From Candidatus Omnitrophota bacterium (GTDB lineage Bacteria; Omnitrophota; Omnitrophia; Omnitrophales; Aquincolibacteriaceae), in the NCBI GenBank assembly GCA_022711115.1, contig JAKLFP010000006.1:86214-150213 (forward strand): a DNA stretch of 64,000 nt, written 5' to 3'. Every line of letters starts with the position of its first letter. Within the stretch, counting starts at the first letter, position 1. Of this stretch, positions 6,943 through 55,900 are shown piece by piece. Both the position numbers and the translations under genes were made by a program. The notes beneath the pieces are model-generated. The model saw only the letters and a list, made by a program, of their open reading frames with translations, searched no databases and was not told the DNA's origin.

Positions 6943-7149
6943 CTTCTTTTTTGTAACTCCAATGAGGCTTGGTATTTAGAGCATGTAAAAGTTAACACAT
7001 GTTTTTAAGTCTTACAATGGACTTATAAAATTTATTTATAAAATATAACAAGCTTTGGATAAAAAAAACTATCTTAAAATAGCATTATTATTCATAAAAT
7101 CAGCAACCTGCTACCTGGAGTTATTTATGAAATCCTTGTGATTTTTAAC

Positions 7150-7350: not shown

Positions 7351-7442
7351 AAAAATATAAAACCCAGCGATTAATTTCAGGCCATTGCGGTAGAAAACTT
7401 TTTACGGCTGTGTTTTTATCGCTTACAAAATGAGAGGTATTT

Positions 7443-8021: not shown

Positions 8022-8095
8022 GTCTGCAGGCTGAAGACTAGAGACTTAAGACTAAAACTGTGAAAAGCTTCAGTTTGTAGTCTTTGGTCTTCCGG
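8022..8095. terminator. Bidirectional terminator hairpin between the convergent sodB and TPR genes (AGACTAaAACTG ... CAGTTtGTAGTCT, extended by GAAGAC/GTCTTC).
   Basis: Imperfect inverted repeat with a ~12-bp stem and a 10-nt loop, lying exactly between two convergent stop codons. Confidence 0.45.
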
Positions 8096-8590: not shown

Positions 8591-8591
8591 A

Positions 8592-9684: not shown

Positions 9685-9726
9685 AAGACCTTCCCTGCAG
9701 CAGCTACCTTAAAGAATTAAAAAGAC

Positions 9727-10221: not shown

Positions 10222-10277
10222 AGCTTATGGCTCATAGCTTAGAGCTAGCCGCTAGGGGCTATAGTCTATGGTCTGAT

Positions 10278-25992: not shown

Positions 25993-28900
25993 TTACGCGC
26001 TTCTTGCCATCGCGAACTGCGCTTGGACTTCCGTCACAAGCGTATTGATGCGGTCCCCAGCAAGGGTGAGGAAATTCTTGAGCATTTTAGGCATCACCAG
26101 CATCGTATCCGGCCATTGCGCTTTCAGGGCCACGGCCAAAGGTTCGCTCGCATAGGCCAATGGCTTGAGATTTAAAGATAAAATACCGGTACTGCGCAGA
26201 CGCGCGGCTTCTATATCCAGGAGTTTTCTCGCTTCATCCAGATGATCGGCTGGAAGGATCGGCGGCCGATGGGCTTGGGCAAGCTGGATATTGATTTTTT
26301 CAAGGAAGCCGCGGTCTGCGGCATTACGTACTAATACGATAACAGGCGTATCGCCGAAAATCGGACGGATAGCCGCGATCAAGCCATGATCCAGCGCAAG
26401 TTCAGGAGCAAGGATCAAGGCATCGGAGGTGGAAATTGTTTTAATCCCAAGGGCTTTAAGCGCTTGGGTGAAACGAACTTTGTCCAGAACCTGTTGAGCC
26501 TTTTGCACCATAGAATCCGGCAAAAGCGATATGGCAAGTTCCGCCGCGTTAAAGGCATAAGCCTGAAGCGAAACAAGGCCATCAGTCAGCTTTTCCGTTA
26601 CTCCTTCGAAACCTTGCAGGTTCCCGCCACCTATTTTTCTGTTTTCCCTGATCAGGTCTTCGATAGTTTTCACGGCAACACGCTCTGGCGTAAAAGTCGT
26701 CAAAGTAACCGTAGGAAGCGGAACAGACAAAGGAACATTTCCAACAACGGCTGCTGTCATGGTGGGTGTTACCGTATGAATCGCCATGGTTTGCCGCACT
26801 TCCGAACGTGACGCCTTTCCTTTGTCTGCCTGTAATTCAGAATGGATAGGTTTAAGATGTAAAATTTGCGCATGATCCCCATCCCTGACCGGTACGCGAT
26901 GTTTCCAACCCGAAAGCAAGTTATCGCGTTCTCCATAGTTTTCCCAGGTTAACATATCCACTACTTGGTAACGGACGCCCGGGTCGATCATTCTTTCAAG
27001 ACCGTTTGTAAGTGTTGTCGATACTTTCCCGTCACCGGCTAATTCACCCTCCTGAATGCCGAAAATAATCGAGGCAAAAACCATTTGCCCAGAATCACTT
27101 TTCCTTGCGAAAACAAGAGAACTCTGATTGGAAGGATCAAAAACTGTCCATTGATGTCCTTCAGCATCGGAAAGATTGTCTCCAAAAACAGCTTTGATCT
27201 CTGTGACTGCCTTCCGAAGTTTTGAGTAATATCCCGGGTTCCAATGTGCAACTTCGGATTTTTCTAGAAGTTCCGGTCTAAAAAGAGCTATCAGGGTCAT
27301 TAAGGGCTTTATGTTTTCTCCAAAGTAATGGGCCGCATCTTTAGCCGAAAAACTGGCCATGATCGCCAATTGTTCAAAAAAGTGGTCCGACCGTACAACA
27401 CCGTCTGTTAAAGTGTACCCTCTGCCTTTTTGGCGGACGAGTTGTTTCATAAGCGCCATCGCAGAGGTTTCACGGTTTCGGATCTTTTCCGCAATATTGG
27501 CAACTTCCGGCAACTCAATGGCCTCCCATTCTTGGACTTCCACAGCGATGGGCATCGAGATCGACGCAGGAACTTCCGAAGCGACTTCATCGCTATGTTG
27601 AATGGTGTGCTTTTTCTCGTATTTGGGGTCCGAGATTCGAACAAGAGGAACATTGCCCGTTTTTCCGACCAACCCGGCAAAGATAGCCGGATCGATGGCG
27701 ATGGAAGTCCGAGACTTGAAAAGTTTCCCCCCGCTCGAGGGGACTTCTTCTCTCACAGGAGCACCTGTATTAATATTCACCTGAAGCGGTTTTCCTCCTC
27801 GTGGAGTAAAAATGAAAGATTGGATCTCGGTGCGCCGGCTCTTTAGGGGTTTGGCGGCCGGATGACCTTCAAGGTAACGCACAATATAAACAGCCCAAGG
27901 CTGATATTTGGGACTGACGTTTTGCGTCAATTCTTTTCTTAGTTTATGGGCTTCCGCGGGAGAAGCTTGCATGTAACGTTCAAACCAATCACCCGCCATA
28001 CGAAGCAACAGTTCTTCTGTCAGATCCAAAGCTTCCAAATTAAGCCGGATTCTTGTCTTTTCATCTGCCGTTTCCGCTTCCGCGGCTAATTGTCCGATCC
28101 GTTTTTTAAAGGGCTCCAATCCTGAAGAAAATTTGGTGAGGACTTGCTCGCGTAAATATCTGAAGATATCATCGTAATAAACATGATGCCGTAAGCTGTT
28201 TAAGGCTTCAACGCCGCGCGAAGAAGGGCTTCCCGTGGGCTGCCATGTTTTGATTTCTCGAAATGAACGGAACATCCCGAAAAGCCCCAAGCCTTCAGCT
28301 GAATGTTTTCGGAATCTGCTTAAACCCTCCCACACAAAATCAGGCGCCTGCACAGGAACCGCATAATCGGAAAACTGATATTGAAGCTGGCTAAATAACG
28401 CTTCCCGCTCTTCATTTTCCTTGAGCATATTTTCAAACAAATAGGCGTGCCCCATGGCCTGTCCTGTCACCATATCCACACGCCAGGCGGCCGCTACGGA
28501 TTGATACATACGTTCACGGCGGGTCGCAGGATCTTTTCTTAATGCTTTGACTGTTTTCAAGGCTTCAAAGAGACTGCGGGCCGAAGGGCGCCTCCCCCCG
28601 CCTTCCTGGCTACTTTTCTCGCTATCGTCATAGGCTACAAAAACACCGCTCAAAATCTCCCAGTCACCGCTTCTTAAACGTTCCCTCAAAATGTCCTGAG
28701 TGATCACTTTGGTGTTCGGTTCCCCTTTTTCATTCAAGACATCGATCATCGCCCCTGTTTTTCTGTCGCGGATCACCCAAACCTCGGGGTTGCTTCCGGC
28801 AAAAGGTCCGACAACTTCGCCTCCGTTGGCCATGACTTTCATCATGCTCGTGGCGGAAGCTTCCAGATCTTCATCGGACAGCATAACTCCTGCTTGGGCT

Positions 28901-31900
28901 CCTCGAAAAATAATTTGCGCTTCGTAATAGGTGTAATCTTCGAGAGTGGCTATCCGGTCTTCCAATCCGAGAAGTTCCGTCATAAAACGTATATAAAGAA
29001 AACGGTCATGCGCGTCGTCTGCAAAAGTACGCCCGCCGATCAACAGGCGAGACATGGTACGCCGCAAAACTTCAACTGCCGGCTGGTTTTTAAGACGTTC
29101 CCGAAGCCCTTCAAAATCATTTTTATAGCGTCCATGATTTTGATCCCTTCCATCTCTATACGCTTTCCAAAAAAGAAAAAGTTGATCGAAAGGCCTTGCA
29201 AAAGGGCCGGAAAATTCCACTTTAAGCCCGGCTTGAGTCACCGCTTCTTCCACTCTTCGTTTGAGCGTTTCTTCGGCTTCTACGGCTGTCATGATAGGTT
29301 TTTTTATCTTTTGGGCGGCTTCGTCTGCGGCTTTGGCAGCGGTGTCTTTCAATCTTTCTTCATATTTATCCGGACCTTTATAAGGTACCTGGCGTCTGAC
29401 ATTCGATGAAATAGGATCGCCAAGAAGCAGATCGCGGGCTTTCCCATAATTTTGTTCAAGTGTCGCCCAGTTTTCTGGTCGGTTTTCTTGAATCGCTGTC
29501 GAAAAAAGTTCCTGCATTTCTCTTAAATGTCCCGCCAGCTGCGTGTCATCTAAATGGCGTTCCGTTTGATAATCTCTAAACGTGCTCCCAAGCCAGTCGC
29601 TCGCGCCTTTGAAACCGCGTTTTTCGCGGAGCCAGATCAGAAGCTGGGCTGCATCGGCCGCGCTGACCCATTCATTTTGAATCTTGAATTGTTCGCGCAG
29701 ATCCGAATGTTTTTCAAGCTCCTGGAAAAATTGCCGGTCGTTGGCTTCTGAAGGAAGTCCGTTTTCCGGTTTTGGGATCTGAAGTTCTTGCTTAAAACGT
29801 TCGATCAAAAGCCTTCTTGCCGGAGACTGCCAACGCGGCAGAAAAACACCGTTCGTACTTCGAATACCTTTAGAAGGATCATAAAAACCTTTGACGCGAT
29901 GCCATGCGGCGCGAAAAATATTTTTTAGAAGCGCCGGTAAGTGTTCCACAAGATTGACGCCGGAAATGAGATGAAAAACCTCTGCCGTAAACCCGGCAAT
30001 ATCGATCATACCGTCATGAACCAGCGTGGAGCGCAACCATTCGGGGAATCCCAAAAGCTCGTAGTGACCTTCCCAGGCTTCAAAAAGACCCGGACGAAAA
30101 ACCGTATGGTTCAGTGTCACTCGCTTCGCACTCTTGAGATGCCGCACCGGGAGGCTCACGAACACTTCATGGTCCAGAAGAATGATGTTCTGGGGATTGT
30201 TTTGATTTTCAAGGATTTGGATCAGACGTTCGCTCGCGGCGCTGAAGAAAGCCATATCAATTTCGCGATTACCCGTATCGTCGTAAACCTCCAAAAAGGC
30301 CGGCGCTTCTTCTTGTCCATTCGGACCTTTGACATAGGCGTCCAGATAATACTGCGGTGATTTGTGAAATTGAAAATAAGTTTTGTAAACCCGGAAAGAG
30401 ACCGTTCTGGGAACTCCTCTCACGGGAAGTGTGACCTCCAAGGCAATATCGGTAGGATCTAAAAACTTTTTGATGATCTGACCGAGAAGTTTCCGCTGAT
30501 GATGATCATAACCTTTGCCGGGCTTATTTTTGATGAAGTTCCAAAGCGGATGAATCCCGGTTACATTCATCCCGAGCGCAGCCCAGGCTTCAAAAAGGTC
30601 CGGCATCAAAGCTCCAAGGCCGCCTGTCAAAGTTGTTTGGGAAGCTTCCCCTGCAGTCCAAGCGCTCATCTCCGCAGCGATTTTTTCCAGAACAGGCATC
30701 GGAAGACCGCATTCGAATTGCCGGCTATAAATATGCTGTTTATGAACTCGGGGCGTATTAACTTCGACCCACTTTGGCACCTTTTGCTCCCGCAATTCTG
30801 AACGTGGAAAAGACGGGGTTATCCCGAGTGTTTTGAAATCAATATTGATCAGGCGGGGATGGCTTAAAAAATCCAACGCGACATCCCAGGATTTCAGCGC
30901 AAGACCCGCTGCGACAAGATTTAAAACGGTCCTGCGGTACAACTCAAAATCCGGACGGTCGACAAGCTCATAAGCTTCCATGCCCTCATAGAAAGATCCA
31001 TGGCCTGCAGCGGCAAGCTTTTGGATCCCTGCCAGGAAATGGGTCTTGGTGTTTTCTTCGAAAATCTTTTTTCTGACCCAAACGATTGTTTTCCCTCTCA
31101 CACCGTAATACCAGCTTGTCTTCATATCCACTTCGACAAATTCATCTGGCTCCGACGGCCGCTCATAGGTCACAAGCCACTGAAGCATACCGGCTAAATA
31201 GTTCGGAGTAATAACGGAATGGTCTATCAAGCTTCGCACCTCGGATCGCCGGTAACGAATGGTTACTTTGGAATTGTTGATCACGGTGTTTTCCCAACCG
31301 CGGGAAGAAGCAGTGACCGATTGGGTTCCCCAGCTTACGGAAACAAACCGGTATCTATTCATATCTGAAATGCCCGCAGCCCTGATTCCGTCAGCACCTT
31401 CAAAATGATTGTCAATGAATTGCCTCACGGTCAGTCCGCGCGGCACATTGATAAAATTGATTGCGATCAGATTTGAAGCGGGCGCAGAAGGTTTCGGCAT
31501 CTCTTGTTGTTTAGGCGCCGGCGGAAGTATTCCCATAATCTTCGCCGCCATTGCTTCCCCGGCAGCTTTCGCTTTTGTTTCATCCGCCACAGTTAAAGGT
31601 ATTTCTTTTTGAACTGGTTCGACGGGTGTTGTTTTTACCGTTGGCACAGACGGTGTATTCCGGGAAGATAGCGCGGCAGCTTCTTCGGTTTTGGACAAAG
31701 CTTGTATGACAAAATGGAGCTCATTCGTCCACGGGTGATCAGGTCGACGGTCTAAAATAGTAAGCGCTTGGATCCGATGGAGAGGATAATGCTCAGGCTG
31801 GTCTCGAAGCATACGGCGCACCGCTTCAGCAATACGTTCCGGAGCTTCGCCCATGCCCACATGATGCACAAGCTTGCGATTGCTATAGCTTGTATCCGTG

Positions 31901-34900
31901 GACGTTTCAAAACTAATCTCATCAATCCTCATCTTCACCTGGAACATAAGCCGATACACAGCATCCCGGACCTCAGAAGGCGTACGTGCAAACACCTCCA
32001 TAGACTTGGATTCTGCTAATGTTTCCGAAACCTTTTTTGGGCTAATTTTCTCTGAAACAGTCATCACGTCGATCTTCTGCCCGATTTGAAACTCGGGTTT
32101 AGGCGCGACAGTCGGTTGAAGTGTGAGCGTGATCTCGCCTTTGTTGTTCTCGGCAGTCAATAAGAACCATCCGTATATTTCTTGGTGGGATGGCACATTC
32201 GCGAAAAAGTCGTTGCCCGTATCGTTCCAAAATGCTGAGGATTGAATCCGGCGACCTGCGCTTTGATAAATAACTTCAATGGCGTGGTCCCGCGCGATAT
32301 TCCACCGATCACCGATTTGGCGCAATGCGTCGGAAATCCGGTCAAATGTCAGCGGTTCAGAGGTCCACGTGTCTTTAGACGGAGCATAAGAAACGCTTAC
32401 AATGCGGTTCGCGTTATAACCGGTTGAACCGGCTTTCTCTTGGATATAAAGCGTCCCGCCTATCAATGCCTCGAATTTTCCTTCGTAAACAGTTCCATCC
32501 TGCATGGAAAGCTTCAACATCGTCCCCAAAGCGACATTTCCCGCTTGAGCATCCGTTTTAAATTGCGCGAACGGGACTTTGGCAAGCAACGTTTCCGCTA
32601 TGTTTTTGGCCATCCCTTCCGGCTTTGGTTGCTCTTCACCGCGCACTTCCGAGCGTTTGGAATCCACATAGGTTAGTGAGGGAGAGAGACGATCATCGGC
32701 AAAATGCAGCCAAAAAATTTCGCCTTTCTGAATAAGAATATCTCGCCATTCCATCGGACGGCTATAAGCATAACGCTGGCCTTTGCTAGAAACCTCTGCA
32801 CCGACCAGGGCCTTATCACTGAGCGAACGAAGACGGATAAGAGATTCCATCAGATCCGCGAGAGACGATTTCTTTAACGCCTTGACTTTTATGAGTGCTT
32901 CCGAGCCATGGATTATCTGGACAGCCTGCTGCGAAGCGCTAAGCCCGGAACCCGGACTCACTAGGCTTCTCAATTCCGAGCGGGACTCGGCGATGAGGAA
33001 GGAATCGCCGGCTCCGGCAATTTCGAAAGTTTTCAAATCCGGATTCAGAAAAGAGCGCCGGAACGCTTCGCCCAAGGACATCCGTCCCGCACTATCCAAT
33101 TCAATAAAAATGGCCCTGCGATGAATTTGATCCATATAGTCTCTTGCCGCAACCGGATCTTGAGGCGTTGTTTGCTCAACCATTTGCTGCCATGCTGTCG
33201 AAGGATAAACCCGCAAGGCTTTGCCTGCCTTTTCCGATACAGCGATAAGTTGAGTCTCCTCTCCTAACATGGTTCGGAAAGGTGCGGGAAGTTGGATCCT
33301 ATTTTTATCATCCACCTTGAAGGTATAAGAGCTGGTGAAGATCACCGGCGCCCGCACTTCAGAGCGGGAAATCACGGGTAAGAGACCTTTATATTTAAGA
33401 TCAGGTCTTTGTATGCCAAGAGAAAAATTTGAACTGCCATCCGCGTACCGGATCACCCATGGTTTTTCGGTTTTGCTTTGGGCTTCCAGCAGTTCAGAAA
33501 GCGATGGTAACTTCACCGGTTGGCCGTTCTTGAACCATTCCAAAACTCGGTTTTGCTGCGACGTATAGCCCAATTTTTTTGCTAGGGTCTCGCGAAGCGC
33601 TTGGGAATCCATGAACTTCATGGGCCAAGGAGCTTTAAGATCAGGCGGGAACCTTGGATTGGTGCGAATCCCGTATACTTGTTTAATTTCACCATCCTGG
33701 GTGATAAAAATTGCCTGGAGAGGGAAACGGCCGTCAAAGCTGCTTCGTAATTGGTCACCGTCAAAAAACCTGGTTTTAAACCGGCCAAAGTGAACGGAAA
33801 TGTTTTTGGCGCCGGTCCGATAAACGAGTTCATGGTCAGGTCCAAGATAAAATCCTTCGAATTCCGGGCTTCTCGGGTCCTGCGTTCCGTTGAACGCGAC
33901 AACTCCCTGCTCAACCGGCTGCTGATACTTCTGCGCCAAATCGAACAGGATTTGTTCTCCTTCAAAATAAGTGACATACGGATCAAGCGCCTGCGCGAGG
34001 TCCCTGTCCCCGAAAAGATTGCCGACGATTTTGACCGTAACGGGTTGCACTGCCTTTGCCCCTTCCGCTTGAGCAAGGCTGATGATCTCGATGCTGTTCG
34101 GATCCTTCGCAGGTTTAAAATCCACGCCCTCGATCAAATAAAGTTTGTCGCGCCAGGCCTGAAGCTGGCTAATCAATTCATTGATAGTGATCTGCGGTCC
34201 GGTTAATGGTTTCAACGTAATCCTCGATTGCCCGATCTGTATCCACCTTGTCGGGCTCGTCACGGACCGGCTGTAAAGAACTTGGGTTTCCGGTAACGCA
34301 ATGGCCGGTTCGGGTTTCTGTTCAACGGGTTCTGTTTTCTTGACTTCTTCTACAGGGGCTTGCGCTGTCTGAACCGGGGTCTTGGGAGAAGCAAATCCCT
34401 GCCGTTGCTGAGCCGCTTTCTCACGGAGTTCTTGCTCTTTCTGAGCTACTTTTGACACCCTGACATCCCACTGCCCGCTACGGCGGGCGTCGTCTTTATT
34501 CATTCGCACTTCAGAGCGGGAGGTAAGCTCGACAATTTGGACGGTAAGTCTTTTCATTTTCTCTTCAGCGGAAGTATTGAGTAATCGATAGGCCGTAAAC
34601 GGTCCCGCAAGCATTTCCGTCACTTCTTGAAAGCCATATTGCCTGACCTTCGGAATAGCGTAATTGAATTCCACAACCGTGACAGTTTGAGAAGCGCTAT
34701 CGACTTTAGCGATCACTCTTTTCCATGAAATGGAGCCGAGATTGGAATTGTCGATGCGCCAATCCTTAGAGATCAACACGCTATTTTCTAAAGTATCGAA
34801 GTCCCCTGCCGAGGTTTGAGAAGTGATCCTGCCGCTTGCCGTATTATTTTCAAGGAGCTTCAGAAGATCGCCATACGGGATGAATCTAACTTCCCCTTCC

Positions 34901-37900
34901 GCTTGCGAAATAACAAGATAAGATTTGTATGCGTCGTGTTCTTGTTCTGCGACAAAAAAGCTAAGATCGCCTGTGGTTTCATCTTTTTGGAAGTCAAGGA
35001 TCCGTTTCCCGGCAAGGAATGTTTCGATTTCTTTTTGAAGTTCCGCGGCAGAACGCCCATTCGCGGCCTCAAATTCAACCTGCCGTTCACCTTGCTTCAC
35101 GATTAATTTTTGTCCGGATTGTTCAATGATAATTGCCGGCGGCGCTGAGTAAGGCCCACCCCACGGAATGCGTCCTTTTCGGGACAGGCTGCGTACTTCC
35201 GAGCGCAACGCAGGTTTTTCCTGCGGTAATTTTCCCAAAACCGCTCTGGCCGCATCATGAACAAGGCTTTTTCCTTTTTCATCAAGACGATTTCCTGAAA
35301 CAAGCTGCTGGACAACATTGGTCACACGGGCATTTACAAAATCGATGAGATCCTGGACCGTCAAACCTGAAAATTCATAATAGGCCGGTTTGCTTTTGGC
35401 CTGCAAGGCGGCTTCATCCGTTTTTGTGATTTCGATGCCGAATCTTTCTTCGAGAGACTGCATCAGACTCATTTCATCCAGGGAATCCATGCCGAGATCT
35501 TCTACTAACCGATCCGTCAGACGAATTTCTTCCTCGATCGCGGGAGGTAAAACCTCTTTTAAAATATCGATGACCTCTTGATCAATATTTTCACTCACCG
35601 TTCCCCGCATTTCCGAGCGACTGGCCTTTCTTCTTTCATTGATGGCGTGCTGAAAGGCATTCGAAAGTATTTTGTAGGGATTTTGCGAATAAAAATAATT
35701 TTGCCACAACCAATGCGCCAGACCTGAAATCCCGATAAAAATCATGCTAAACGCAACCACGCGGGGGATCTGTTCCTCCGCCGGCAAGAAGAATGTTGCC
35801 GTCCCGATAAGAGGAAATATAATCCCCACCAGGACCTTCATAAAAGCACTGCTCCGTCGGAATTGGAGTTCAGCAAGAAAAGAGGTGGGGTTACCGTTTT
35901 CCGCTTTTTTGTAATTGTCGGCATATCGGTTTTTCATTTTTTCCCACAATTGTTCTAAGCGGTCTAAGGTTATCCGGTTTTTACTATTTGATCGGAGATA
36001 TGCTCTGACCGATTCATCAAGAGAGCGCAATTCAGACCTTGCTTCCGTAAAGAGAACAGGATTGATTAAGTCATGGCTTAAATTAAGGGCATCATATTTC
36101 AAAGCTTTTTTTTGCTGTAAAAGTTGAATGCTTTTTGAAGGAATAGTTCGAAACTCAATACGATCAAACTCTGGGACTGTTTCTGTCCTGACGTTTTTGG
36201 TCGGTTTGATGCCCATGGAAGATATCCAGCCTTCAAAGGTTGTTTCCCCTGCTTCTTCCTGAAAGAAGTAAAAACGAAGTTTGAACGGCCCTTGAACAAT
36301 GTCCTCGGGTCCCAATTCGCGGGACCGGATGGTCCCGGCAGCCCCCGCTAACCATGAAAACCACACAAGATGGGAAAATTGTGTCCTTGGCAAATGTTCG
36401 TGGTGGGAATTATAAAGTTTATCGGGAAGTGCGAGATAGTGCTGTACCGCCTTACGGTTCTTAAACAACGTGATCATAAGACCTAAGGATCCTTGCTCAT
36501 CACCTTCAAAGTCATGGGCATCCAACCGAAGCTCCCGCTCCCATCCGATGCCTCCATTTCTCATATTCCAAACAAGCGGTTGGTGGACCAGATCCGACAG
36601 TTTGAATAAAGGTCCCTGAACAGCCCGTACTTCGGAACGAGTTTCCAGCTTCCTTGGCATAAAGAAATTTCCCGCATCGTCCTTCGAATCCCCCATAGAA
36701 AGCTGCTCGATGCCTTTAAAAACTTCGGCAAAAAACTTTTTTGCTTCGGCCTGTCTTATAGATTTTGAAGCGATAGAAAATTCCACTGTGATATCACGGC
36801 CATAGCTATTCAGCATCGCCTGCGTGTGATAGTTCAAGCCTAAAAGGGTCATCTCGTCCCACGACAAAAGATTAAATCTCTGTCCGTCGCTGCGAATAAT
36901 GGCTGCTTGAAAACTCTTGTCTTGAACAAGATATTTTCTTTCGAGAAGATGTTTGGTTCTGGCGGTAGGCGCCGTGTGAAGCCCGAGAGCGTTTCCGATG
37001 CTGTATTTCTTTGCCGCGATCCAGCGATCTCCTATTTTTGTCAGCTTAAAATCAGTTTTTCTTAATTCGGAGCGCTGATCGTTCATGTAATTCGGCTTGC
37101 GGGTCACCGGAAAAGCAGGCTCGGCGGTTTTTCGGGCATATGCAAGCAGGTATTTCTGCATTTTTTCGTATTTTGTACCGACGTTGATCGGGCCTTCGAT
37201 CCCACGGATGGGCTCCGTCAGTGTGAATCCCGCGGCCCGAAGAAGTGTTTCGAAATAACTCGGCGTGACAGTAAAGACCCAGCCATTGAGAAGTCGATCG
37301 CCGCTTAATTTTTGATTTTTAGGCTTGAAGATATTTCCCCCCGGGGCCCATCGGACAAAAAGAGGCGCGTCTTTTTCGAGAAGGTCCCTGAGCGAAAGTA
37401 ATGCGTTTAGCTGTTCTTCGGGCGAAAAATAAAGGAGCACATCGCTGATAAAAATCCCTCCGAAAGTTTTCCCGTTGAAATCAGCCGTTCGGAAATCGGC
37501 GGTCATGAACCTGTCTTTAGACATGTCCCCGAAAGAGGGATCTTCGAGAGCGGCTTTGATAAGCGACGGCGAGATGTCCGTTCCCCAAAGGTCGGTAAAT
37601 CCCTGTTCCTTAAATTTCTTGAGCGCCCTTCCGATGCCCATACCCACATCAAGAATGCTTTTATCCTTGCCGGCCATCAACGCCAGGAACTGATCGATCG
37701 TTTCTTGATGCGGAGAAACGTTCCAATCGCGGAGCTTATGGCGTTCAAAATCAAGGGAGAATTCATCATCCGTCCAGTACCGGACATTGCTGATCGCCGG
37801 GTCGGGGGGTGATTTTCTGAAGGTTTCTACCGCCGCCTGGAATTCCGGAGAAGTTTCCATCAGCGTTGCCAAAACCCGGGCAAATTCCGGATGATGTCTT

Positions 37901-43900: not shown

Positions 43901-46900
43901 GGAGCTTCCACGCTCAAGTTTGCCGTTTGAAGATCCGCCACTTGCCGCAAAGAAATCTTAACAACACCTTTTCCTGTCTCGATTACAAGCGGTTGGGACA
44001 ACGAAACCTCAAAAATTTGTCCGGCCAAAATCGCCACACCGCCTTTTGTGATCATCGAACCGTCCTTGATTAAAGGAATGGAAACCATCATCCTTTGCTG
44101 TTGTGAAGACAATGTATCGATCTGGACCCGGAAGATCCCGGGGCCGAAAACAAGTTTATGCCCGCGGGAAACGCGCATTGTCTCTGTGGTAAGGATAGTG
44201 GGCTTTTCCGGATTTCGCATTTCCGAACGATGCTTTTTTTCAATTCCTATTTCAGCATACAAAGGCTGCCCTGTGTCCTGGACTTTATGAAGATGAACAA
44301 TAATATCACCGACGGAAATGCTTTCTCCGGCAATCCGTCTGCCCTCTTGGATTACTTGGCCCTCCTTTAAAATTTGCAAAAAAGCGGCAGGCAGACTATC
44401 CCAACCATAACGACCGGGATAAGCTTCAACATCTACGGTCAAAGATAATCCATGGTCTAATTCGATAGTTTGCTGATCTTCAACACGTTTTAAGGATAGT
44501 TCTATTTCATTCGACACTTCAAGTTTTTGTCTTTGGGGACGGTTTTTATAAAGTTCTTTTATTCCTATCACGATCATCCCTAAGATCGCAGCCGGTGCAA
44601 CAATCCTGGCCAGAACAACCAGGGAATTGACCCAATCGATATCCATCCGCAATTCCGAGCGACGAAAATGAGGCGCTTCGTCCATTTCCGGGGCCAAAAG
44701 ATCTTGAGTTTGCTCCACCGCGGCCCTGACAACCGACATTTCATCAAGATAGCGGCGATAAGCGCGCGTGGTCACGGGATCGGCCGGCGATTCCTCGGAC
44801 AAAGATTCGATTTTCTTTTCCAGACCCTGAAGCCAGCTCGCCCATGCCGCAGAAGCCGCGTAGAGCCATCCCAGAGTTCTTACAAGATTTTCGACGTTTT
44901 CCGGTTTTGCGTTTTGACGGTCCGACAGAAGCCGTTCGGCCGCAGGATTGAATTTACGAACCAACGGATCCCGGATCTGGCTAAGCATGCTCGGTTGGTC
45001 CAGCCGGTTATCCTGGAGATGCCTTCCGATCTCTGTCTTGATCCTCACAGGGTCCGTGGAAGGATTCCCGTTGTGCGGCGCGAGCGCAAATAAAGCGTTG
45101 GAAACTTCTCGGAGCGCGGACAAAGCGTCGGCGTGAACCTGTTCCGGTAACAATTTATTTTGATAAATCTCTTCCAGACTCAACAGCCTGTCCATAAGAG
45201 ACGCGGTATTTGAACCGATAAAATCAAGCCCTTCCTCTCCGGCTACCGCCTCTTGTCCTTCTTTTTCAAGAAAACGCTGCGCTTCCCGTCTGCTCTGAAA
45301 GATCAAGGCCGTTTCATTTTCAATCCGCAACTCCGAGTGAGGCGTTTGGGAAGCCGTGTCCCCGCCCGTAAGCGAGAACAACCGCCCGCGCAACACCTCG
45401 AGCCGGCTCGATAAAACCTTCCGGCTACGTTCCAAATTTATCCGTTCTTGTAAAGAGGTTGCTTGGCGAAACTTTACAGCAAAAGATTTTGAGCTGGATT
45501 CCAAATTGGCGATCCTCAAACGAATCTCTTGTTCGTCAACTGGAATCCCCGGATCCGGATCTTCGGCACGCGCCTCCGACCGGGAGATCTTAGTCATGTC
45601 CGGAATATTCCCGAGCAGCTCTCCGACAGCACGGGCTATGCGAACCCGGGAATTGTTGGGATCATCACCGAAATTCCCGGCATTGCTCTGCACTATTCCG
45701 ATCAAGTCAGAGACAACTTCCGCTTGTTTACGGACAGCCTCGGGAAATCCTTCCGTGGAAATCACGTCGAACAGCCCGCCTTTATTTTCCGTAATAGCCA
45801 GGAAAAGTTCCTTCAGCTTTTCACGATCCCCTTTGAAATTTTCCTTGATGCCGGTCATGTCGGGATTAACGCTCCGGACCAAAAGCCTCAAAAGGATCTC
45901 GGCCTTGATTTCAGAAGTCAATGTCCGGTTGCTCATAATATCGTTCAGGACTTTTGCCCGCCGCTCCGCCTCAGAAAAACCCGTCATGGATTCAGGCAAT
46001 GATTCTCCGAGATTCAGAGCCTTGGATTTTTGTTCCTGCGCGTGAAACTCATAGGCCGAGGCCACGATCAGATCCAACCCACGCTGTGCCCGCCAAGCCA
46101 GTTTCCGCGTCGCCAATTCACTGCTGGCACGAAGAACATCCGGATCGCCCTGCCGGCGCGGACCGTAATCCACCACTAATTTGCCGCGCTCTGCCGCGGG
46201 AAGCACTTTCCTGAAACTTTCAACGATCTGATTATTGGAGGTTGGGGTTCCTGTCCCTAAGGTAAAGACTTCGCCTACTTTTTTATTCTCTGTCTTGGCT
46301 TGATAAGACAGTGACAAAGATTTCATAATCGCGTGACCAATGTCCAGAACATGGATATAATCCCGGATATTGGTGCCATCGGGCGTCTGATAATCTTTCC
46401 CAAAGATCTGGAACGGAACCTTTTCTTTTCCGTAAAGGAAATATTTGATGAGCCTCGGGATGAGGTGCGTCTCCGGACCGATATGCCCTTCCCCGACCCA
46501 CTCTCCGATCTCCTCCCAGTAAAACGCTCCTGCCAGATTGAAAAAACGCAGCGCCGCGAAATTAACGCCCTGCGCTTGATAGGCCTGCATCAGGCGTTCC
46601 ATCAGATATTTGGTCTCTCCGTAAGGGTTCATCGGTTTTGCCGGGATCTTTTCATCAAGCAATCCGTATTTATTGAAATTCTTTCCTTCAAAAACACCAG
46701 CGCTCGAGGCGAACGCCAGGGGGATCCCCAGTTCCTTCGCGACTTCTTCCACATCCAGCGTACCAACCACATTATTGTCAAAGTACGTCGCCGGAAAATT
46801 TCCGGAGACCCCAGCGGCAATGTAAGCCGCCAAATGAACAATGCTGTCCGCGTGATGTTCCATCGCGACCTGCTTCAAAAGATCGCGGCTTGCGATATTT

Positions 46901-49900
46901 CCTTCCACCACTGAAACTCTTCCAGGGTAGGCCGCCTGGACCTTCCGCAGATAGGCCTTCCGCTTGGGTGTGAGCATGTTGTCAAAAAGGACGACCCTGG
47001 ACCCGTTGGAAAGCGCTTCATACATGACCCCTGAGGCTACATAACCAAAACCTCCCGTGATCAAGACGGTCTTTCCTTCATGGATTTTAGGATCCACATT
47101 CGGAGCCACCGGGCTTTCGATCATGGATTTCTGCCAATTTAAAAAGTAGAGACGCTCGTCATCTTTAGGAAGGATCTCAAGTTCCCAGTTCTCTTTGATC
47201 AAAATTCCGCCGAGCTCATAAGATTTCTTGGAAGCCAGAAAGGCCGCGATCTTTTCAGGGATCCCTTTTTCCCGAAGTTTGCGTCCCAATTCTTCAGAAG
47301 ACATGTAAAAAGCTTCCTGGGCCGCGATCTCGACAGCGATATGATCGTCTTGCGTCACCTCCACGCCTCCGATGCTGCCAAGACTGGCCTGAAGACGTTT
47401 TTTCCAGTAATGAGACTGCGCCAGATACGAAGTAGCGACCGTTTCCACCACGGCTACGGCATCGGGCTTTTTGATCGGTTCGAAAGTATCTTCGCGCGTC
47501 AGCCCGACCAGAGGAGATTCCGGTCTGCGGGGCCTGTCATCGCTCGCACGTTCTAATTTTTTGACAGTTCTTGTATTCCCCTCGAAATCCACCTGCGGTT
47601 TGGTGTCAAGCCGCCACGGCGTTCGGCTGGACGCTTTGAGACTTTTTCTCCACAACACGCGAAAACTCGGGTCCCCCCACAGCACTGTGTCCTTAATGGC
47701 GTCCGTGGCGTTCCCGTAGCCGATATGGCGCCACTGCCCGTCGGAGGTTTTGATCTGGTTCCCAAGCCGGTCATCGCGATTATTTTTCTTCACAACACCC
47801 AATGCGATATGGGCTCGGTCATCCTGATTGCCGGGATTCCATGTCATTTGCCCGTAGCCGATCAATCGCTCATCCGCGATGGGGTTCAGCTGATTGTCCA
47901 CATTAAGGTACTGGACCACTTCAACGCCGAAGGAATCGAGAAAAGCGTTCACATCCTCCCGGAGAAGAACATCATCAAACGTATCCCCATGACCGGTTCC
48001 CCCTGTCGCGATCTCGCCGTTCTTGTTCAGAAAAGGCATTCCTGTTTTCGCGTCAAAAAGCGGCATCACGCCCTGTTGGGCGATAAAGATCCGGTCTTTC
48101 ATCCCGAACCACTGATTTTCCTCAAAGAACTGTATCGTTTTTTCATGGGTGATATCGCTTGTCATGATGATGACGGGAAAAGACGCGTCGTGACCGTAAT
48201 ATTTTGCTGCGGCCTGGATCTTCTTGATGATCCCGGCATAAAGCGGGAGCTGGCTCAAGGGTGTTCCGGGCAAAAATCCCTTGGGGTCAGGGCTCTTAAA
48301 CTCAGACCCCGAACCTCCGGCCGCCAGGACAAGCGCAAATCTTGATTTCCCGGGCATCGCCGGATCCGCCCGCAAAACTTTTTCCCGGGCCAGACGCTTT
48401 GCGGCGGCATCCTCCGCTGCTCCCGGTTCATGAACAGGAACGGTGAACGTTTCCGGAACTTCCGGCTTCGGCACTCCCGGCATCACAATCGTGTCCCGGA
48501 GTCGCTTGGCCTCTCTCCACAGAATTGTTTTAATCTGTCCGAGTATTTTTTTCTGCTGCTTTTCGCTTAAGGAATCCCACGGCGCCAGCAGGTGCTCCCA
48601 GCCGACTTCCTTGAGGCTTTTCATGGCCCAGGATGGGATTTCCGCGGCAACGCGTACTTCGGAACGTTTCTGCGAACCGCTTGCCGGAACAATCCCGCTA
48701 AGAATATCTTTTTCCCCCGCCGTCAGAACGGCATACGCTTGCGCGTGTTGTTCCGCAATGTCTCGCAAAACTTCTTCAGCGTAGTCTTCATCATCAACTT
48801 CCGGATCAAGACTTTGCATGACTTCTTTAAGAACGCTGGCGAATACTCTCGTGTTGAATTTCCCGTCGGCAAAAGTCTTCGGCAAAAGTTTCCCTTCCGC
48901 CAATTCCTCGGGAGAAAGGTCAAGTTTGGAGATCGCCTTTGCCGCGGCCTCTTCCATAACATGTAGTTTCAGGTCTTTCAGTGTCGGCACATCACGCAGC
49001 GCCCTGAAAATGGCCGGAAAACTGTAGCTGTTGTTCAAGGTGCTTCCCTGCGGGTATCCAAAAGCGCCTGTTGCGATAAAACGGATGTTCGGCATTTTTT
49101 TGAGTTCTGCCGGGTCCGCTTCGGGAGTCGGGTTCGAGCCCATAAAAGCACTGGCCTGGTCCTTCATGCCAGAAAAGATCGATTCCTTGCCCCACAAAAA
49201 CCCAGGCTCGGATAATCCTATAAAAGCATCCGCCCCTTGCAGTCCTTCCGCCAAACGCCCCTGATCGATCAAAGAAAGGACTATTTGGTTAATCTCGGGC
49301 ATAAGATCGCCGTATTTTTCGCTGAGAAATCCCGCGATGTTCTCCGGCAAACGGCCTTGTTTCTGCAGGGCCTCCATCGCGGCCAATCTTTCTGCCGCGG
49401 CATGGGCAACATGCTTTTTATCTCCTCCCTGCTCGACTTCGGCTAAAGCCAGTTCATGGGCCTTCGCAACCGAAAACTCCAGGCTTCCTTTAAATCCCTG
49501 AATGTTCAAAGCCGCCAGGTCATTTTTATGCTCTTCAAAGATTCCTTTTCGGCCCGAATAAAGAGGGCCCTTGGTGTCGTATACGATAATATTGCCACCC
49601 CCTGTTTTATCCATACCGAAACCGAGACGTTTCAGGAGAAGTGCTGTCGCGGTGGCAGAGGCCCCGGCGCCGGCGATCACCACTTTCATTTTAGAAATAT
49701 CACGGTTGGTTTCTTTCGCGGCCCGTAGAAGAGCTCCCGCAAAAACCATCGCGGTCCCGTGCTGATCGTCATGAATGGTCGTGATCCCTGTTTCGTTCAG
49801 TTCTCTTTCCAGCGGAAAACAGACCGGCGACCCGATATCCTCCAGCATCACCACAACCTCAAGTCCTTCCTCCTCGCGAACCTTGGTGACATAAGCCTGG

Positions 49901-52900
49901 ACTTGCTGTTTGATCTTTTCCTTAATCTCAAACGCTATTCGTTTTTTCGCCCCGGGATCTTTTTCTGCCTTGTATTTGAGCCACATGTCCCGCGTATCCA
50001 CAAACGCGATGTCCACGTTCACGCCGCCGAACCACTTCAGCAAAATCCTTTTCCCTTCCGATACCGCGCGCATCACGGCCGGCCACTGCAGTCCGATCCC
50101 AAGCACCGCGGAAGCGTCCGAAAAAATCACGATCTTTCTTTTTTGAGCCGGGAAAGACAAAGGCTTTTTGCCGTAAAGCGGCGTTTCAAGGTCCAGGCCT
50201 TTTTTCAGCGCGTCCGCGATCGCTTCACAAACGGCTCCCACGCCGGGGGTATAAACCGTCTTCATCGCTTCGATCACATCGACCGGGACAATGCCGTGCT
50301 TAAAAAATATGTCGATGAGTTTTTTGTAAGTCTGATATTCCGATGGGATCGCCGCCGGCAAGCTGTCCTCAGATGTCTCCCGAACTTCAGACCGGGGTCT
50401 GCTTTCCATACTAACCGCTACTTTGCAATTATTTGTGTCGGCCCGGGTCCTTACGCGGACATTTTCCCATCCCAATCGGGTAAGGTTTTTGAATGGAATA
50501 TCAAAGACAACCCAAGTTGTCCGATTTGAATCTACAATAAGCGAAGCTTCTTCTATCAATGCGTGGATATCTCCGTAGATATCAGCAGGCCTTTTCCCGG
50601 AAGGATCCACGTATAACCGCATAGGGATCCGGATCCGATCGTCCGGCTCAATGAGTTCGACTTGAAGTTGTTTGTGATCCTTAAAGAAGGATTGCTTAAC
50701 AAAAATATTGACGGCTTTGTCGTTTGTTTCGACGAAACCCGGAACCAAAAGGCTGATATCCTGTGCGGGTAAATGCCATTGGGGGCCTATGAAATCTCCC
50801 AGCGGCTCCCGAAAACTCCATGCCGTCAGCGCAAGAATTAACAACGCCATAGCCATACTTAGGTTTAAGAAAATAGCCCGTGAACTTAGGTTTGGATTCC
50901 ACCAGCGCCTTATCTGGGTGTCTGTGCGTGAAGCTTCTGGGATGGCAGCAACAGAACCGCCTTTCGGGGGCATGGTTCGTATTTCGGAACGGCGTCCAAA
51001 AGCTTTGGTAAGCGCTTCGGCAAGGGCTTTCGGATTGTCCCATGGAGCAAGATGTAATGAGGAATCTTTTTTGGGGTTTTTAAAAACAATTTTTTTCTGG
51101 AAAGGTTCAAGGCTTCGTTTTTCTCCTGACTGTATGACAGACACTTGTTTTGAGTTCAATCCAAGCGCCCGCTGTAATGTTAAAACAAGGTCTTCCGGAC
51201 TTTGCACAAAATCCAACGGGGCCATGTCAATGCCCACCCAAATACCGTTTCCAGCCTGATGAAAAGTTACCTCATACCCAAGTACTTTTGCCGTCTCACC
51301 CCGCATTTCGGAACGGCCCAGGTTTTGGCTTGGATCTGTTCTACCATTTGCGCGCTGATGAACGTTGATGATCGTTTGGGCGATCTCCATGGAGTTCATA
51401 ACAAAACCGTCTTTCATCACCGGTTTTACATTTTCGGTAACAAACTCCGAGGGACCCTGAGCGTAAACAAGCAACTGGCCGTCTTCGCTCTCAATAACAT
51501 GAATCCCATTCGGCAATGTCCTTCCCATACCTTGGATCAATCCTGCGAGCTGTTTTGCCGAGAAAACCGTGGTGTAATCACCGATGACCGCCGCAAGAGA
51601 TGTCGGATCTTTCCGGCTAGCGGCCCTCACTTCAGCCCGTTGAATGGCAGCAATTGCATTTTTTGCACTTAGGTGAACGGATGGATCTGAATCATTCAGC
51701 GCTGAGTAGAGCGCTGAAAGCGCTGGTTGGGCCTGGGGACCAATTTCCCCAAGTGTGATAATGGTCTGCTCACGAATCTCCGGAGAAGGGTCCCTCAATT
51801 GGGGCATTAACTGCCAAACTGCATCGCCCGCCTCAGAACCCAAGGCGCCAATAGCGGCAATGGCCTTTAAACGCACCTCTTTTTCCGGGTCGCCGATTAA
51901 ATGAAGCCAATCACTCACATTTTTCGGCATAGCCGTTTCAGACGTACTCCTCATTTCAGAGCGATTGTCCGCGGGATGTTTTCCTTCGAAGTGTGATGGT
52001 TTTTTGACAAAGGTGACTTTAGCGGTTGTCCCTTTAGGATAAGGATGTTTCAGGGTTTCGGGATTTTTTAAATCAACTGCTTTATGGCCGGGAGATGGAA
52101 TGATGCTGGCAATGTATTCACCGCCGCCTAGATTTTCACGTACCTCAACGGCTCGCTTGATAGCCTTGAGCGTCATGGTTGCCTCAAGTTTATAGATTTT
52201 AAAATGAAGGGCGTCGTCAGCTTTCACTTCCGTTAGCCCTTTGACCTTCGTCCTCATCTCGGACCTGGCAGAACGGCTTTTCAGGGTATCTATTTTTCTT
52301 TGACCCTCTTGATCTTCCGGTTGGATATAGCGGTGCAGAAAATGCCAAAGAAGAGATTCAGGAGTGAGAAGCGACTGGTCCCAAACCGGCATGTCTTTAA
52401 AAATCGTCTTGAATCGTTTCAGGACGTTGAATACAAAATCATTCTGCTTTCTCTGGAATTGCTGGGCATAGGCGATTTCGATTAACGGCCCCAAAAAACG
52501 GTTAAGAAACGGCAGTTCATAAGCAAGTTGTGTATTAATGGAACGATGCGCTTTTTTCATGGTTTTAAAGCTACGTTCCGTTTCTTCGAATCTCATCTTT
52601 TGCCATCTCCGGATCACCTCGGCAACCGTATGCTCCGGTCCCACCACCAAACTTGCGAGGATATCCCGCATCAAGCGGATGTCATAACCTGTCAGGATAT
52701 TATTGCCGTAAAGCAGCATATCAGGACTTGTATAAAGAAAGATCCCATAATGTGTTTCTTCAGGTTTCAAAACGGCCAACAACTCATCACTCAAAGCTTC
52801 AACCCCTGTCACAATCAAGGTCTCGTCCGGCGCAAGCTGCAAAAGCTGTTTTTCTCCTCGGTCGTCTTTAACGCGGATTTTCTTCCCGTCCAAAGCATTA

Positions 52901-55900
52901 CGGACATCCCACGGATTGGCAAATTCAAGGTCCAAATGTTTCAGCTTAAGACCTGCTTGAGCGAGCATTTCAGAGAGCTCTTCGGTGATTCCATGTTTGC
53001 CCGAAGCGCGCATGCCACCGATCAAGATCACCTTGGGTTTTTTCTCAAGGATCTCACGGATAACCTCCTCGGTCTGTTGCTTTTTGGATCGATCCACCTT
53101 TTCGACCAATGCTTTTCTTTCCTCTTCGGTTTTGATCGCTCGAAGTTCGTCGAGAGTTTCGGGCAGAAGTTCCAGGCTCATGCCTTCAAGGTCATAAGGT
53201 TTTTGGCCCTCAAGTTTTTTCGCCCATGCTTCGGGATGGCGCGCCAATTCCGCATTCATAATACGGATGACGGCCAAAATAAAGGCTGCTTTTCGAAGAC
53301 TTATTTTTTTCGCGTCGGCAATACGAACAACATTGTTAAAAGCGCTGATAATTTTATCTTCCATAATGCGGTTCACGGCATCTTCCGGCCATTGTTCACG
53401 AACAAGGTTCTGCCGCCATTCCAGGTAAGAAACGATCACGCCGCCCGCATTGGCAACCACATCCGGAACAACGATGACACCTTTTTGCTTCAAAATTCCG
53501 TCGGTTTCCTTGTTTTTGATCGGTCCGTTGGCTGCTTCAATCACCAATTTGACCCGGAGCAAACGGGCAATGCGTTCATCAATGGTATTTTCGAGTGCGG
53601 CAGGCACTAGGGTATGAACCTCGCTGGCCCAAAATTCTTCCTCGGAGATCACTTTCACTTCTTCGGGGTATTCTTTTGCATAATCCAAAATGGTTTTCCT
53701 GGGAAGCATGTTGCCGGCCGCGTCTTTCCTGGGTGCCAGGAATTCCAGAATCTTGGGAATGTTCAAACGTTCACCGGTTTTGGTCGCAATAGCGCCTTCT
53801 TTTTCTTTCACGGCCATAATCCTTGCTCCATTTTCATGAAAGATTTGCGCGCCATGCCCGCCCACATTGCCGAGTCCTTCAAACGCAACGGTTTGTTTTT
53901 CTATCTCTGTCCCGATGCCGAGCCGGGCTCCAAAAACTTTGACTGCTTCGCGCCAGACAAAAAACACCCCACGGCCTGTTGCTGCAGTCCGACCATGTGA
54001 ACCGCCTTTTTTCTCGGGCTTGGCGGTCACCACAGCAATGGGAGATCCTTCTACCATTGGAATTTTATGCTTTTCAGGATTTGCTAAATACGCGTCTAAA
54101 TAGGGTGTGTCGACATCTTTGGAATTGCTTAGTTTCCACCGAAATTCGATTGTTTTTTTGAATAATTTGTCATGCTTAATCTTTAAAAATTCATCTGCCA
54201 TCCATGCCATTTCCTTTTCTCCAGTGCCGACATCCGGAGCCGGAATATCATTCAAAGGACCGATCGCATCGGCATCTTTGGCAAGCAAAGCCTTCACATA
54301 ACCTCGAGTCAATCGTGCGAGCTCGCCTTCTGAAAGCTCGCGCGGATTCACGGCAATGCCTCCCTTGCCCCCTCCGTAAGGAAGCCCTGTGATGGCATTT
54401 TTGATGCTCATCCACATGGAAAGAGCCTGCACATCCTCAAGATCGACATTCGATTTATAGCGCACACCGCCTTTTCCCGCCCCCCGCGCATCATTGTGAT
54501 AGACGCGATAGCCTTTAAAGATCTTTGTGGTGCCATTATCCATACGCACCGGAATATTTACTTCAAGGATACGATAAAAGCTGAGGAGCCATTCAAGAAG
54601 TTGGGGATCAAGGTGGATCAGCTCTGCGACCTCCGAAACCTGACGCTTTGCATTATCAAGGGCCACCTGACCTTCGGATGCTTTTGCCTGTGCTTCTTTT
54701 TCTGCTCGCACTTCGGACCGTCCTTCAAGTTGGCCGGGCATGTCGGCCATCAAAATTCCCTCGTCATCTGACAGCAACGTCTGCTGACCGCCAGGCGCTA
54801 CATAGCGCGACACCGGCCTGCTGAGTTTTTTTCCTCCGCTGAAATTCAGGAAAGCGATCGGTTTCCGGTTGAATTTTTCAGAAAGTTTGGAAGCCCAAAA
54901 ATCAGCGCTAAACTGATCCGTTCCGGCCACTACCAAAATCTGGTCTGCTTCTGATAATTCGTTAAATAACCTGTCGGGAGGTGAAGTGATGTCGATGGCC
55001 CATTCACTCTCATTGCAGATGAGCAGTGCCAGTTTGAATTTTTGATTCAATAAAATGATTCGCGATTCTTGGTTATGAGCGTATTTCTTGAATTCTGTTT
55101 TTTGAACTCGACCCGTTCCATCGGAAAGGAAAAAGACATAGAAAGCCCTTAAGTACTCCAGCCCTTCGGGAGGGATCCTCTCCAAACCGTAGCCGACCGA
55201 AATTCCAAGACGCCGGACCGTTTCTGAGAGAATTCTTTCTCTTTCTTTTTCGCGTTCCGGAGTGTAGCTGTTCCAACCCACAACTTCATCCGGGCTTTCA
55301 GGGAAAACAACAAGATCGGGGGCATTTGTTCCGAATTTATCTTTGAGCCCTTGCAGAATCCCCGCCATTCTGGCTGTGCTCGCATCAAAATCATTTTCCT
55401 TCATTTGGACCCAAGCGATCCTTGGAGCGTCACTTTTTGCCTTTTCGTCAAGCCACACAATCTGTGCGGGTAACGCTTCTTCTTTTTTTCTCACTTCGGA
55501 ACGAGAAGAAACTTCGGGCGGCTGTTCTTCAAAAAGAAGATCAAGGGCCAACTGACCTTCTTGACCATAACCTTTCTGCCGAAACAGATCTTCTAAGCGA
55601 GGGCGTTGTACGAGGTCGCTGAAATCCGCATCTTCGGAAATTTGGTCTTGTATGGTCTTGCGAAGCAATTCCAGAATCCTTCCCGCGGATGAATAATCAG
55701 AACCACGTTGAGTCTTACGAATAAGAGAATCTGTTAACGCCGTAAAAATATTAGCGAGAAAAATAGTGTCTCGAGCTTCCTGAGAGATATTGGCAGGAAC
55801 ACGGCTGGCTGGTTTTTGATCCTGCATTTTTGCCCTCGCAATAGCACTTTGAATCCAGTCCATGACCGTTTTCTTGGTTTTGTTTTCAGTCCTCACTTCA

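Follow-up and report, generated by a model that had tools for sequence, protein, structure and literature searches.

A motif-punctuated giant open reading frame in an Omnitrophota bacterium, a candidate polyprotein gene with metabolic enzymes among its cargo

A large part of the small genomes of the Omnitrophota is taken up by open reading frames (ORFs) of 10,000 to >100,000 aa, and whether these encode single proteins or chains that are cut is an explicit open question that has been blocked by the lack of known cleavage points. Here, we analysed a 64,000-nucleotide stretch from a Candidatus Omnitrophota bacterium (GenBank assembly GCA_022711115.1, contig JAKLFP010000006.1, positions 86,214 to 150,213 of the forward strand), which is called the window below and is numbered from its first letter. 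One ORF on its reverse strand runs uninterrupted for 11,695 aa before its stop codon and forms a gene of 35 kb (Table 1). The part of it that a preliminary description, made from the letters alone, had singled out as a giant protein with embedded enzymes (window positions 26809–54705) corresponds to residues 2126–11424, starting after one copy of the pentapeptide RSEVR and stopping before the last copy of the motif to which RSEVR belongs. The length lies above the ≥10,000 aa used for the very long 'multi-enzyme metabolic' proteins of the Omnitrophota, and approximately 12 different enzyme or domain families, none of them dominating, were found along the chain using Pfam, together with an N-terminal signal peptide and several transmembrane (TM)-like segments.

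The pentapeptide R-[S/A]-E-[V/M/L/I/A]-R is found at nearly every boundary between the modules of this ORF. There are 34 strict copies, where 0.15 would be expected, and the maximum reached in 500 residue shuffles was two. The copies are placed between Pfam domains, and the linker around the first of them is disordered in an AlphaFold2 model of the N-terminal domain (the head). No residue is conserved in the flanks of the motif, except that small residues are found at position −1. The copies differ in their codons, which suggests a constraint exerted, at least for the most part, on the protein. A recurrent short motif at the junctions, as a polyprotein should have, is thus a property of the giant ORF, and also of the family to which it belongs (see below). 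A reading of the motif as a site of internal re-initiation with a Shine-Dalgarno function was rejected, as the codons vary, GAA dominates over GAG and a Met follows the motif in only three cases. Ribosome skipping of the 2A type was also considered and no supporting feature was found. Four isolated copies in short non-coding frames of the window were dismissed, since by our estimate roughly 1–2 would be expected by chance.

Table 1. Positions in the window of the giant ORF, the modules discussed in the text, the junction motif and a second gene of the same type
Feature	Residues of the giant ORF	Position in window	Strand	Description
Giant ORF	1–11695	25993..61080	-	Head, ~36 cargo modules and tail; ~38 modules in total, 40–1,332 aa
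Head, m01	1–631	59188..61080	-	Signal peptide, TIKI/TraB/ChaN/Ere-like putative hydrolase, first RSEVR
m05	1865–2125	54706..55488	-	'Nitrilase-like' in the preliminary description, just outside the range that it gave
m06	2126–2943 (818 aa)	52252..54705	-	Glutamate dehydrogenase with C-terminal P-loop-like domain
m08		51625..51948	-	HEAT repeats
m12	3568–4143	48652..50379	-	Malic enzyme, diverged (Pfam 1.6e-14)
m13	4144–5171	45568..48651	-	UDP-sugar pyrophosphorylase (UDPGP, 1e-11) fused to GalE-type epimerase (7e-38)
m17	5772–6084	42829..43767	-	IMPase/CysQ-family phosphatase (6e-23), GEE and DPIDGT
m18		42103..42828	-	Family-less protein, signal peptide VGVVSKLAMAGLLALGLQVQSALAQ directly after motif; paralogue of m24
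m20		40468..41982	-	Family-less protein, N-terminal signal peptide directly after RSEVR
m22		39391..40179	-	Family-less protein, N-terminal signal peptide directly after RSEMR
m24		38020..38745	-	Met and signal peptide MSAISKLVITGLLVLGLQAQSALAQ directly after RSEVR; paralogue of m18
m26	7729–8007	37060..37896	-	S-adenosylmethionine (SAM)-dependent methyltransferase (Pfam 1e-9)
m30		35191..35604	-	Acyl carrier protein-like, DSL serine present
m33		32968..33351	-	MraZ-like
m37	10098–11429 (1,332 aa)	26794..30789	-	Very divergent, GT35/alpha-glucan-phosphorylase-like
Tail, m38	11430–11695	25996..26793	-	Conserved, ends ...ARSA
Motif sites (15 nt), starts, first 12		59188, 58297, 55891, 55489, 54706, 52252, 51949, 51625, 51301, 50977, 50380, 48652	-	
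Motif sites, next 11		45568, 44647, 44215, 43768, 41983, 40468, 40180, 39391, 38746, 37897, 37060	-	
Motif sites, last 11		36625, 36025, 35605, 35191, 34504, 33352, 32968, 32641, 31234, 30790, 26794	-	
Degenerate motif variants		42829 (RFEVR); 42103, 38020 (RNELR)	-	HSELR and PSEVR also present
Second gene		1..6975	-	Paralogous head-led putative polyprotein gene, ≥2,325 aa, runs off left end of window; signal peptide
R[SA]E.R motifs of second gene		5022, 4035, 3783, 1440		

The preliminary description had claimed that complete enzymes with intact catalytic motifs lie inside the ORF and this was confirmed for the glutamate dehydrogenase (GDH, m06), the malic enzyme (m12), the UDP-sugar pyrophosphorylase/epimerase fusion (m13), the IMPase-type phosphatase (m17) and the methyltransferase (m26). 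GDH is the clearest case. Both Pfam domains are matched end to end (ELFV_dehydrog_N, 1e-49; ELFV_dehydrog, 8e-58), alignment with GDH chains in the PDB extends over residues 31–429 of 436, and the features of the Glu/Leu/Phe/Val dehydrogenases, including the GGGKGG Lys box and the Rossmann GxGxxG, are present along with an insertion of ~50 aa. The NCBIfam score is 346 bits against an equivalog cut-off of 750, and the nearest relative in a database of 5.8 billion proteins shares ≤43 % identity. The entire module m06, i.e. GDH with its P-loop-like extension, aligns end to end (residues 3–790, 35 % identity, E 3e-140) with P0015, which is the 796-aa product of a standalone gene in an ordinary gene neighbourhood elsewhere. 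P0016 (494 aa, 43 % identity), among the closest relatives of the GDH, has an N-terminal hydrophobic signal-like segment, which is unusual for a GDH, and an insertion between its two GDH domains at a position similar to that in m06.

In the malic enzyme, YTPGV, EGK, LEDI, HDDQHGTA, GAGASA, NPTPE and NN..FP.IFR are all present. In m13, no copy of the junction motif separates the two parts, and the GalE part, which includes both GxxGxxG and YxxxK, scores 233 bits with TIGR01179 (cut-off 262). The large module next to the tail, m37, is a weaker case as its matches to GT35 are sub-threshold (Pfam, 19.5 bits against a gathering score of 27; TIGR02094, 23 against 192), though a comparison with yeast glycogen phosphorylase in the PDB gave E 1e-4 over 59 residues that include EASATSMMK, the box earlier noted as the pyridoxal phosphate site, and a TNGV..RW stretch also matches. 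The claim of a nitrilase was not supported. No nitrilase or CN-hydrolase match for m05 was found in Pfam (E≤10), NCBIfam or the PDB, E...C-like motifs (VVFPES and LLICNES) can be picked out by eye only, and this identity was rejected. Modules m08, m30 and m33 are additions to the enzymes and other proteins listed previously. Module m08 is also one of four consecutive modules, m07–m10 (50977–52251, reverse strand), of 101, 108, 108 and 108 aa with near-identical spacing of the motif. All of the enzyme modules score below the NCBIfam equivalog cut-offs. Their sequences are catalytically intact yet diverged, a divergence that fits specialised paralogues or fast-evolving sole copies alike.

Modules with signal peptides or TM segments are interleaved with the enzymes, as had been described. 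Modules m11, m15, m23 and m29 each include one or two TM-like segments, and four modules (m18, m20, m22 and m24) begin with a classical signal peptide that ends in ALAQ or WAQ and lies 0–1 residues from the motif, one of them retaining a Met. The same arrangement, with a signal peptide directly after the motif, is seen in the related protein P0005. Signal peptides of the classical type function at N-termini. The position of these signal peptides is direct evidence, at the level of sequence, that the residue following the motif would be meant to become a new N-terminus.

The cargo is bracketed by a head and a tail. The head had no match in Pfam at E≤10 and none with the curated family hidden Markov models (HMMs) PF01963, PF04187 and PF05139; one relative, P0011, matches PF04187 at E=0.028 only. 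In the AlphaFold2 model, the ~630 aa of the head form two halves separated by a large helical insertion. The conserved residues of the head, H84, E112, E187, R475 and H503, are present in 157–159 of 159 diverse heads and, in a sequence-level comparison, appear to match the 2His/2Glu site described for the TIKI/TraB/ChaN/erythromycin-esterase superfamily; at the same level, the spacing of His84 and Glu112 equals that of His85 and Glu113 in Bcr135. The head is assigned a TIKI/TraB/ChaN/erythromycin-esterase-like fold, with only moderate confidence because the model had no significant Foldseek match against the PDB. This superfamily, to which HopBA1 and TraB also belong, includes site-specific endopeptidases such as Tiki and RRSP. 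Compared with the members of the TIKI/TraB/PrgY/GumN/ChaN/erythromycin-esterase superfamily, the head is set apart by its size and helical insertion, by going unrecognised by curated HMMs and by leading a motif-punctuated chain.

Complete related genes close with a homologous tail, and proteins throughout the family end in a conserved [S/A]A. No Pfam or NCBIfam match was found for the tail and an AlphaFold2 model built with three sequences was unusable (predicted local distance difference test score, 42). The smallest arrangement is seen in P0006, which consists of the head, a spacer, RSEMR and the tail.

The combination of head, cargo punctuated by the motif and tail is found again in hundreds of Omnitrophota genomes. 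A search with a profile of the head recovered 9,645 cluster representatives, and an E-value of ≤1e-30 was reached by 6,573. The 150 best representatives all have the head at their N-terminus and are up to 7,498 aa long. At least 547 head matches were found in GTDB species genomes, with several per genome, and the best 80 of these are labelled Omnitrophota/Omnitrophica or 'uncultured bacterium'. When gapped 5-mers were counted without bias, RSExR was the top 5-mer in 30 of the 42 head-led ORFs in the related loci that were fetched, and among the 96 representatives with ≥1,500 aa, RSExR or RAExR was the top one in 65. Other pentapeptides recur at the junctions in loci L009, L030, L072 and L074 (RPE[SA]R, 12 copies; LSDSR, 11; RAEKR, 8; RSESR, 9). 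The RSESR of L074 differs from the mixed RSE[S/M/A/L/T]R of L011, and these two loci are from the same genome judging by the contig-accession prefix CAZDVO. All assessable ORFs in the fetched loci that include three or more motifs are head-led, in a sample that was chosen by similarity to the head. In L003 (721–2469 and 2432–12469), L032 and L040, a change of frame separates the head ORF from the motif-rich rest, with which it shares a short overlap, and this could stem from programmed frameshifting, from pseudogenisation or from frameshifts introduced by sequencing.

Between head and tail, the cargo varies. Homologues of m37, m26, m33, the GalE part of m13, m09 and m21 were found in other members of the family in different orders, each flanked by the motif on either side. 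Homologues of m37 are present in 11 related loci and are motif-bounded in both of those checked (L014 and L020). L014 also includes a homologue of m26, 57 % identical, as a motif-bounded module, motif-bounded homologues of the MraZ-like m33 are found in L006, L015 and L023, and L022 has the GalE part by itself between motifs. The syntenic locus L006, which lies beside MqnA-like and M24/GIY-YIG genes, has the same head and tail and encodes only ~2,800 aa with a different cargo (MraZ, a response regulator and UDP-glucose dehydrogenase). In a 2,354-aa member from another Omnitrophota metagenome-assembled genome (L026:3271-10332), the cargo includes a complete triosephosphate isomerase (Pfam, 253 bits; residues 1181–1441) between RSEAR motifs at 1169 and 1446, and if this is the sole tpiA of that genome then glycolysis there depends on the putative polyprotein. 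As judged from these comparisons, cargo is gained, lost and shuffled between the head and tail as motif-bounded cassettes. Several complete proteins are thus found within one ORF, as is seen from the full-length enzyme profiles, the correspondence of m06 to P0015 and the triosephosphate isomerase in L026.

The genes surrounding the giant ORF are ordinary and separately terminated. They encode a superoxide dismutase, two dihydrofolate reductases, ThyA, an ABC transporter, a Bax1-I protein, a split transketolase, an M24 peptidase and flavodoxin-like, sulfotransferase and MqnA-like proteins, all with normal stops. The flanking transketolase gene also matches ~74-kb contigs in two independent assemblies (NCBI GCA_035390585.1, contig DAOOUA010000012.1; ENA ERZ27257456). 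Because the neighbouring genes are ordinary ORFs with normal stops, and the flank is found in independent assemblies, a genetic-code or stop-codon artefact was rejected as the origin of the giant ORF. The protein collection that was searched had no entry for the giant protein itself, and a protein search with residues 8008–9480 found a single relative, P0001. The second gene of this type in the window (Table 1) has its own head motifs, VVHIEDAHGSEEAQ and VLVTGGFHSEG. The dihydrofolate reductase genes (9193–9684 and 9727–10221, reverse strand) are in tandem directly downstream of the thymidylate synthase gene (10278–11072). Upstream of the giant gene is a divergently oriented ORF of 725 aa (61396–63573, forward strand), for which a weak match to BLACT_WH (E=0.004) was the only one.

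The preliminary description had argued that the chain must be cut, as cytoplasmic enzymes interleaved with signal peptide-bearing and TM modules are topologically incompatible in one polypeptide. This argument is now strongly supported by the 34 junction motifs, the signal peptides that follow the motif, the modules that correspond to whole proteins and the motif-bounded exchange of cargo, from which cleavage is inferred. We consider it probable that the ORF encodes a polyprotein that is processed at the motif, whichever protease is responsible. A site-specific endopeptidase would act on the exposed linkers, cutting at R-[S/A]-E-x-R or beside it. This would take place while the chain is being translated or shortly afterwards, ahead of its targeting to the membrane, and the released modules would then fold and localise independently. 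The GDH, malic enzyme, UDP-sugar enzymes, IMPase, methyltransferase, acyl carrier protein and MraZ would remain in the cytoplasm, and the Sec pathway would receive those modules that have a signal peptide or TM segment at their start. With cutting and independent targeting of this kind, the topological conflict raised in the preliminary description would be resolved. The most likely protease would be the head domain of the same gene, which possibly has this role; this is the weakest step in the scheme.

A number of observations weigh against this scheme. In the literature, ORFs of this kind are taken to encode single membrane-anchored proteins (10.64898/2026.06.07.730766). The signal peptide of the head predicts a periplasmic location, which is awkward for a protease that would release cytoplasmic enzymes. 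Standalone heads that lack both the motif and tail exist (P0010–P0013), and polyprotein processing is therefore not the sole role of the head. Some long head-led ORFs are without a recurrent motif (L037, L063, L083 and several of the representatives). The codons of the motif are also biased. CGY encodes the first Arg in ~80 % of cases (background, 41 %), and TCN encodes the Ser in all 33 cases here and in 93 % of those in related loci (background, 68 %), whereas codon usage for the last Arg is unbiased. This bias could reflect descent of the linkers by duplication, the mutational neighbourhood of S, A and P or a constraint at the nucleotide level.

A serious rival to the head as protease is a separate cytoplasmic protease, encoded elsewhere, that would cut the polyprotein, in which case the head would be the first exported cargo, with a periplasmic or surface job, and the tail its partner. 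The signal peptide on the head and the existence of heads without motifs are consistent with this arrangement, and the minimal head-motif-tail gene, P0006, suggests that the head and tail are a functional pair. However, the motif variants differ between genes, apparently within one genome in the case of L074 and L011, which is harder to reconcile with one shared protease. Beyond the head, Pfam searches of the ORF turned up no protease domain, and the only neighbouring peptidase gene is the M24 one, of aminopeptidase type. The co-occurrence of head and motif in all assessable ORFs points the same way, weakly, given how the sample was chosen. Hence, we view a separate protease as rather unlikely.

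That the chain is not cut at all, and is a membrane-anchored mega-protein with enzyme domains on one or both faces and R-S-E-x-R as a structural or linker element or a docking site, appears unlikely. Published topology analyses do give signal peptide plus TM or TM-only proteins, giant proteins of V. archaeovorus have been detected by proteomics, and cleavage is so far an inference from sequence. Yet the signal peptides that directly follow the motif are of a kind found at N-termini and have AXA-like ends, and in the 2026 preprint internal calls of signal peptides were treated as artefacts and suppressed. If the topology alternated between in and out, GDH and IMPase, which are normally cytoplasmic, would come to lie in the periplasm. 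The modules are complete proteins with their own termini, and conservation of a strict pentapeptide across thousands of divergent proteins is not normal for linkers.

The possibility that head and tail deliver the chain into prey, where autoprocessing would free cargo that rewires the metabolism of the prey as in a MARTX-like effector array, is highly improbable. In its favour, conserved ends with variable, shuffled cargo are what MARTX toxins have, the fold of the head resembles that of RRSP (a TIKI-family effector of MARTX), and predators or epibionts are known among the Omnitrophota. However, Pfam gave no match to RTX repeats, to a C80 cysteine protease or to features of the type I secretion system type in any segment, the cargo is mainly housekeeping-type enzymes, acyl carrier protein, MraZ and proteins with bacterial Sec signal peptides, which would be odd as effectors, and the complete triosephosphate isomerase looks like self-metabolism.

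Returning to a polyprotein processed at the motif, we tentatively extend the proposal to the family, which may be a large unrecognised class of cellular polyprotein genes in the Omnitrophota, of the order of 10^4 clusters, in which cytoplasmic enzymes, regulators and secreted and membrane proteins are made in one chain, freed at R-S-E-x-R by the TIKI-like head of the same gene and evolve as cassettes. If this is true, many of the 'giant proteins' of the Omnitrophota would be precursor chains rather than mega-proteins. The junction motif and the protease-like head provide concrete and testable candidate cut sites for the giant genes of this phylum, and with the motif, giant ORFs could be divided by computation into real proteins, as input for structure prediction and for the reconstruction of metabolism. 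A topology figure such as '147 TM helices' would need revision, and metabolic reconstructions that expect a standalone tpiA, gdh or galE could be affected. If cleavage occurs, this would be, to our knowledge, a rare case of a free-living cell that uses virus-style polyprotein expression for core metabolism, and the protease and its site would be a new site-specific pair.

Giant genes of the Omnitrophota were described by West-Roberts et al. (bioRxiv 10.1101/2023.11.21.568195), and Nielsen & Lui (bioRxiv 10.64898/2026.06.07.730766) have since compiled a catalogue of 916 long proteins in which a 'multi-enzyme metabolic cluster' forms one of the classes. In the latter work, the long proteins are read as single signal peptide plus TM or TM proteins and internal signal-peptide calls were suppressed (10.64898/2026.06.07.730766). 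The ORF examined here resembles the published multi-enzyme ORFs in its length (≥10,000 aa), in its many diverged Pfam enzyme families, and in its HEAT repeats, methyltransferases, signal peptides and TM helices; the published ORFs also carry response regulators and starch-synthase/GT-like domains. The R-S-E-x-R punctuation, TIKI-like head, conserved tail and cassette shuffling are not part of either account. Nielsen & Lui do not use the words cleavage, motif or polyprotein in their text, and in the literature searched we found no paper that combines the Omnitrophota with polyproteins or gives the motif strings in a relevant context. Hence, though the tiling of metabolic enzymes in giant Omnitrophota ORFs has already been published, no earlier account seems to exist of the punctuating motif, of the architecture of head and tail or of the behaviour of the cargo as cassettes. 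The Archaeovorin or Dockerin-type giants (West-Roberts et al., 2023) are larger, with genes of >90 kb encoding >30,000 aa compared to 35 kb here, and their hallmarks (a C39/S8 peptidase N-terminus, SecA-DEAD, glycosyl hydrolases, NUDIX and dockerin/TSP3) are unmatched by Pfam in this ORF.

Further afield, there is a parallel in architecture with the MARTX toxins, which are also giants with conserved termini and variable, recombining modules, and the modules of which are freed by an internal protease. They differ in that the ORF described here has no RTX repeats or C80 domain detectable with Pfam, carries housekeeping-like cargo and has a strict pentapeptide at its junctions. Junctions in MARTX are Leu-X sites. 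The viral polyproteins (picornavirus, potyvirus and nidovirus) likewise have many proteins per ORF, a short motif at the junctions, a plausible cis protease and both membrane and soluble products. Unlike these, the giant ORF is a chromosomal bacterial gene with metabolic cargo and proposed cleavage sites, its candidate protease is TIKI-like rather than chymotrypsin- or papain-like, and a conserved head and tail bracket a cargo that is highly variable.

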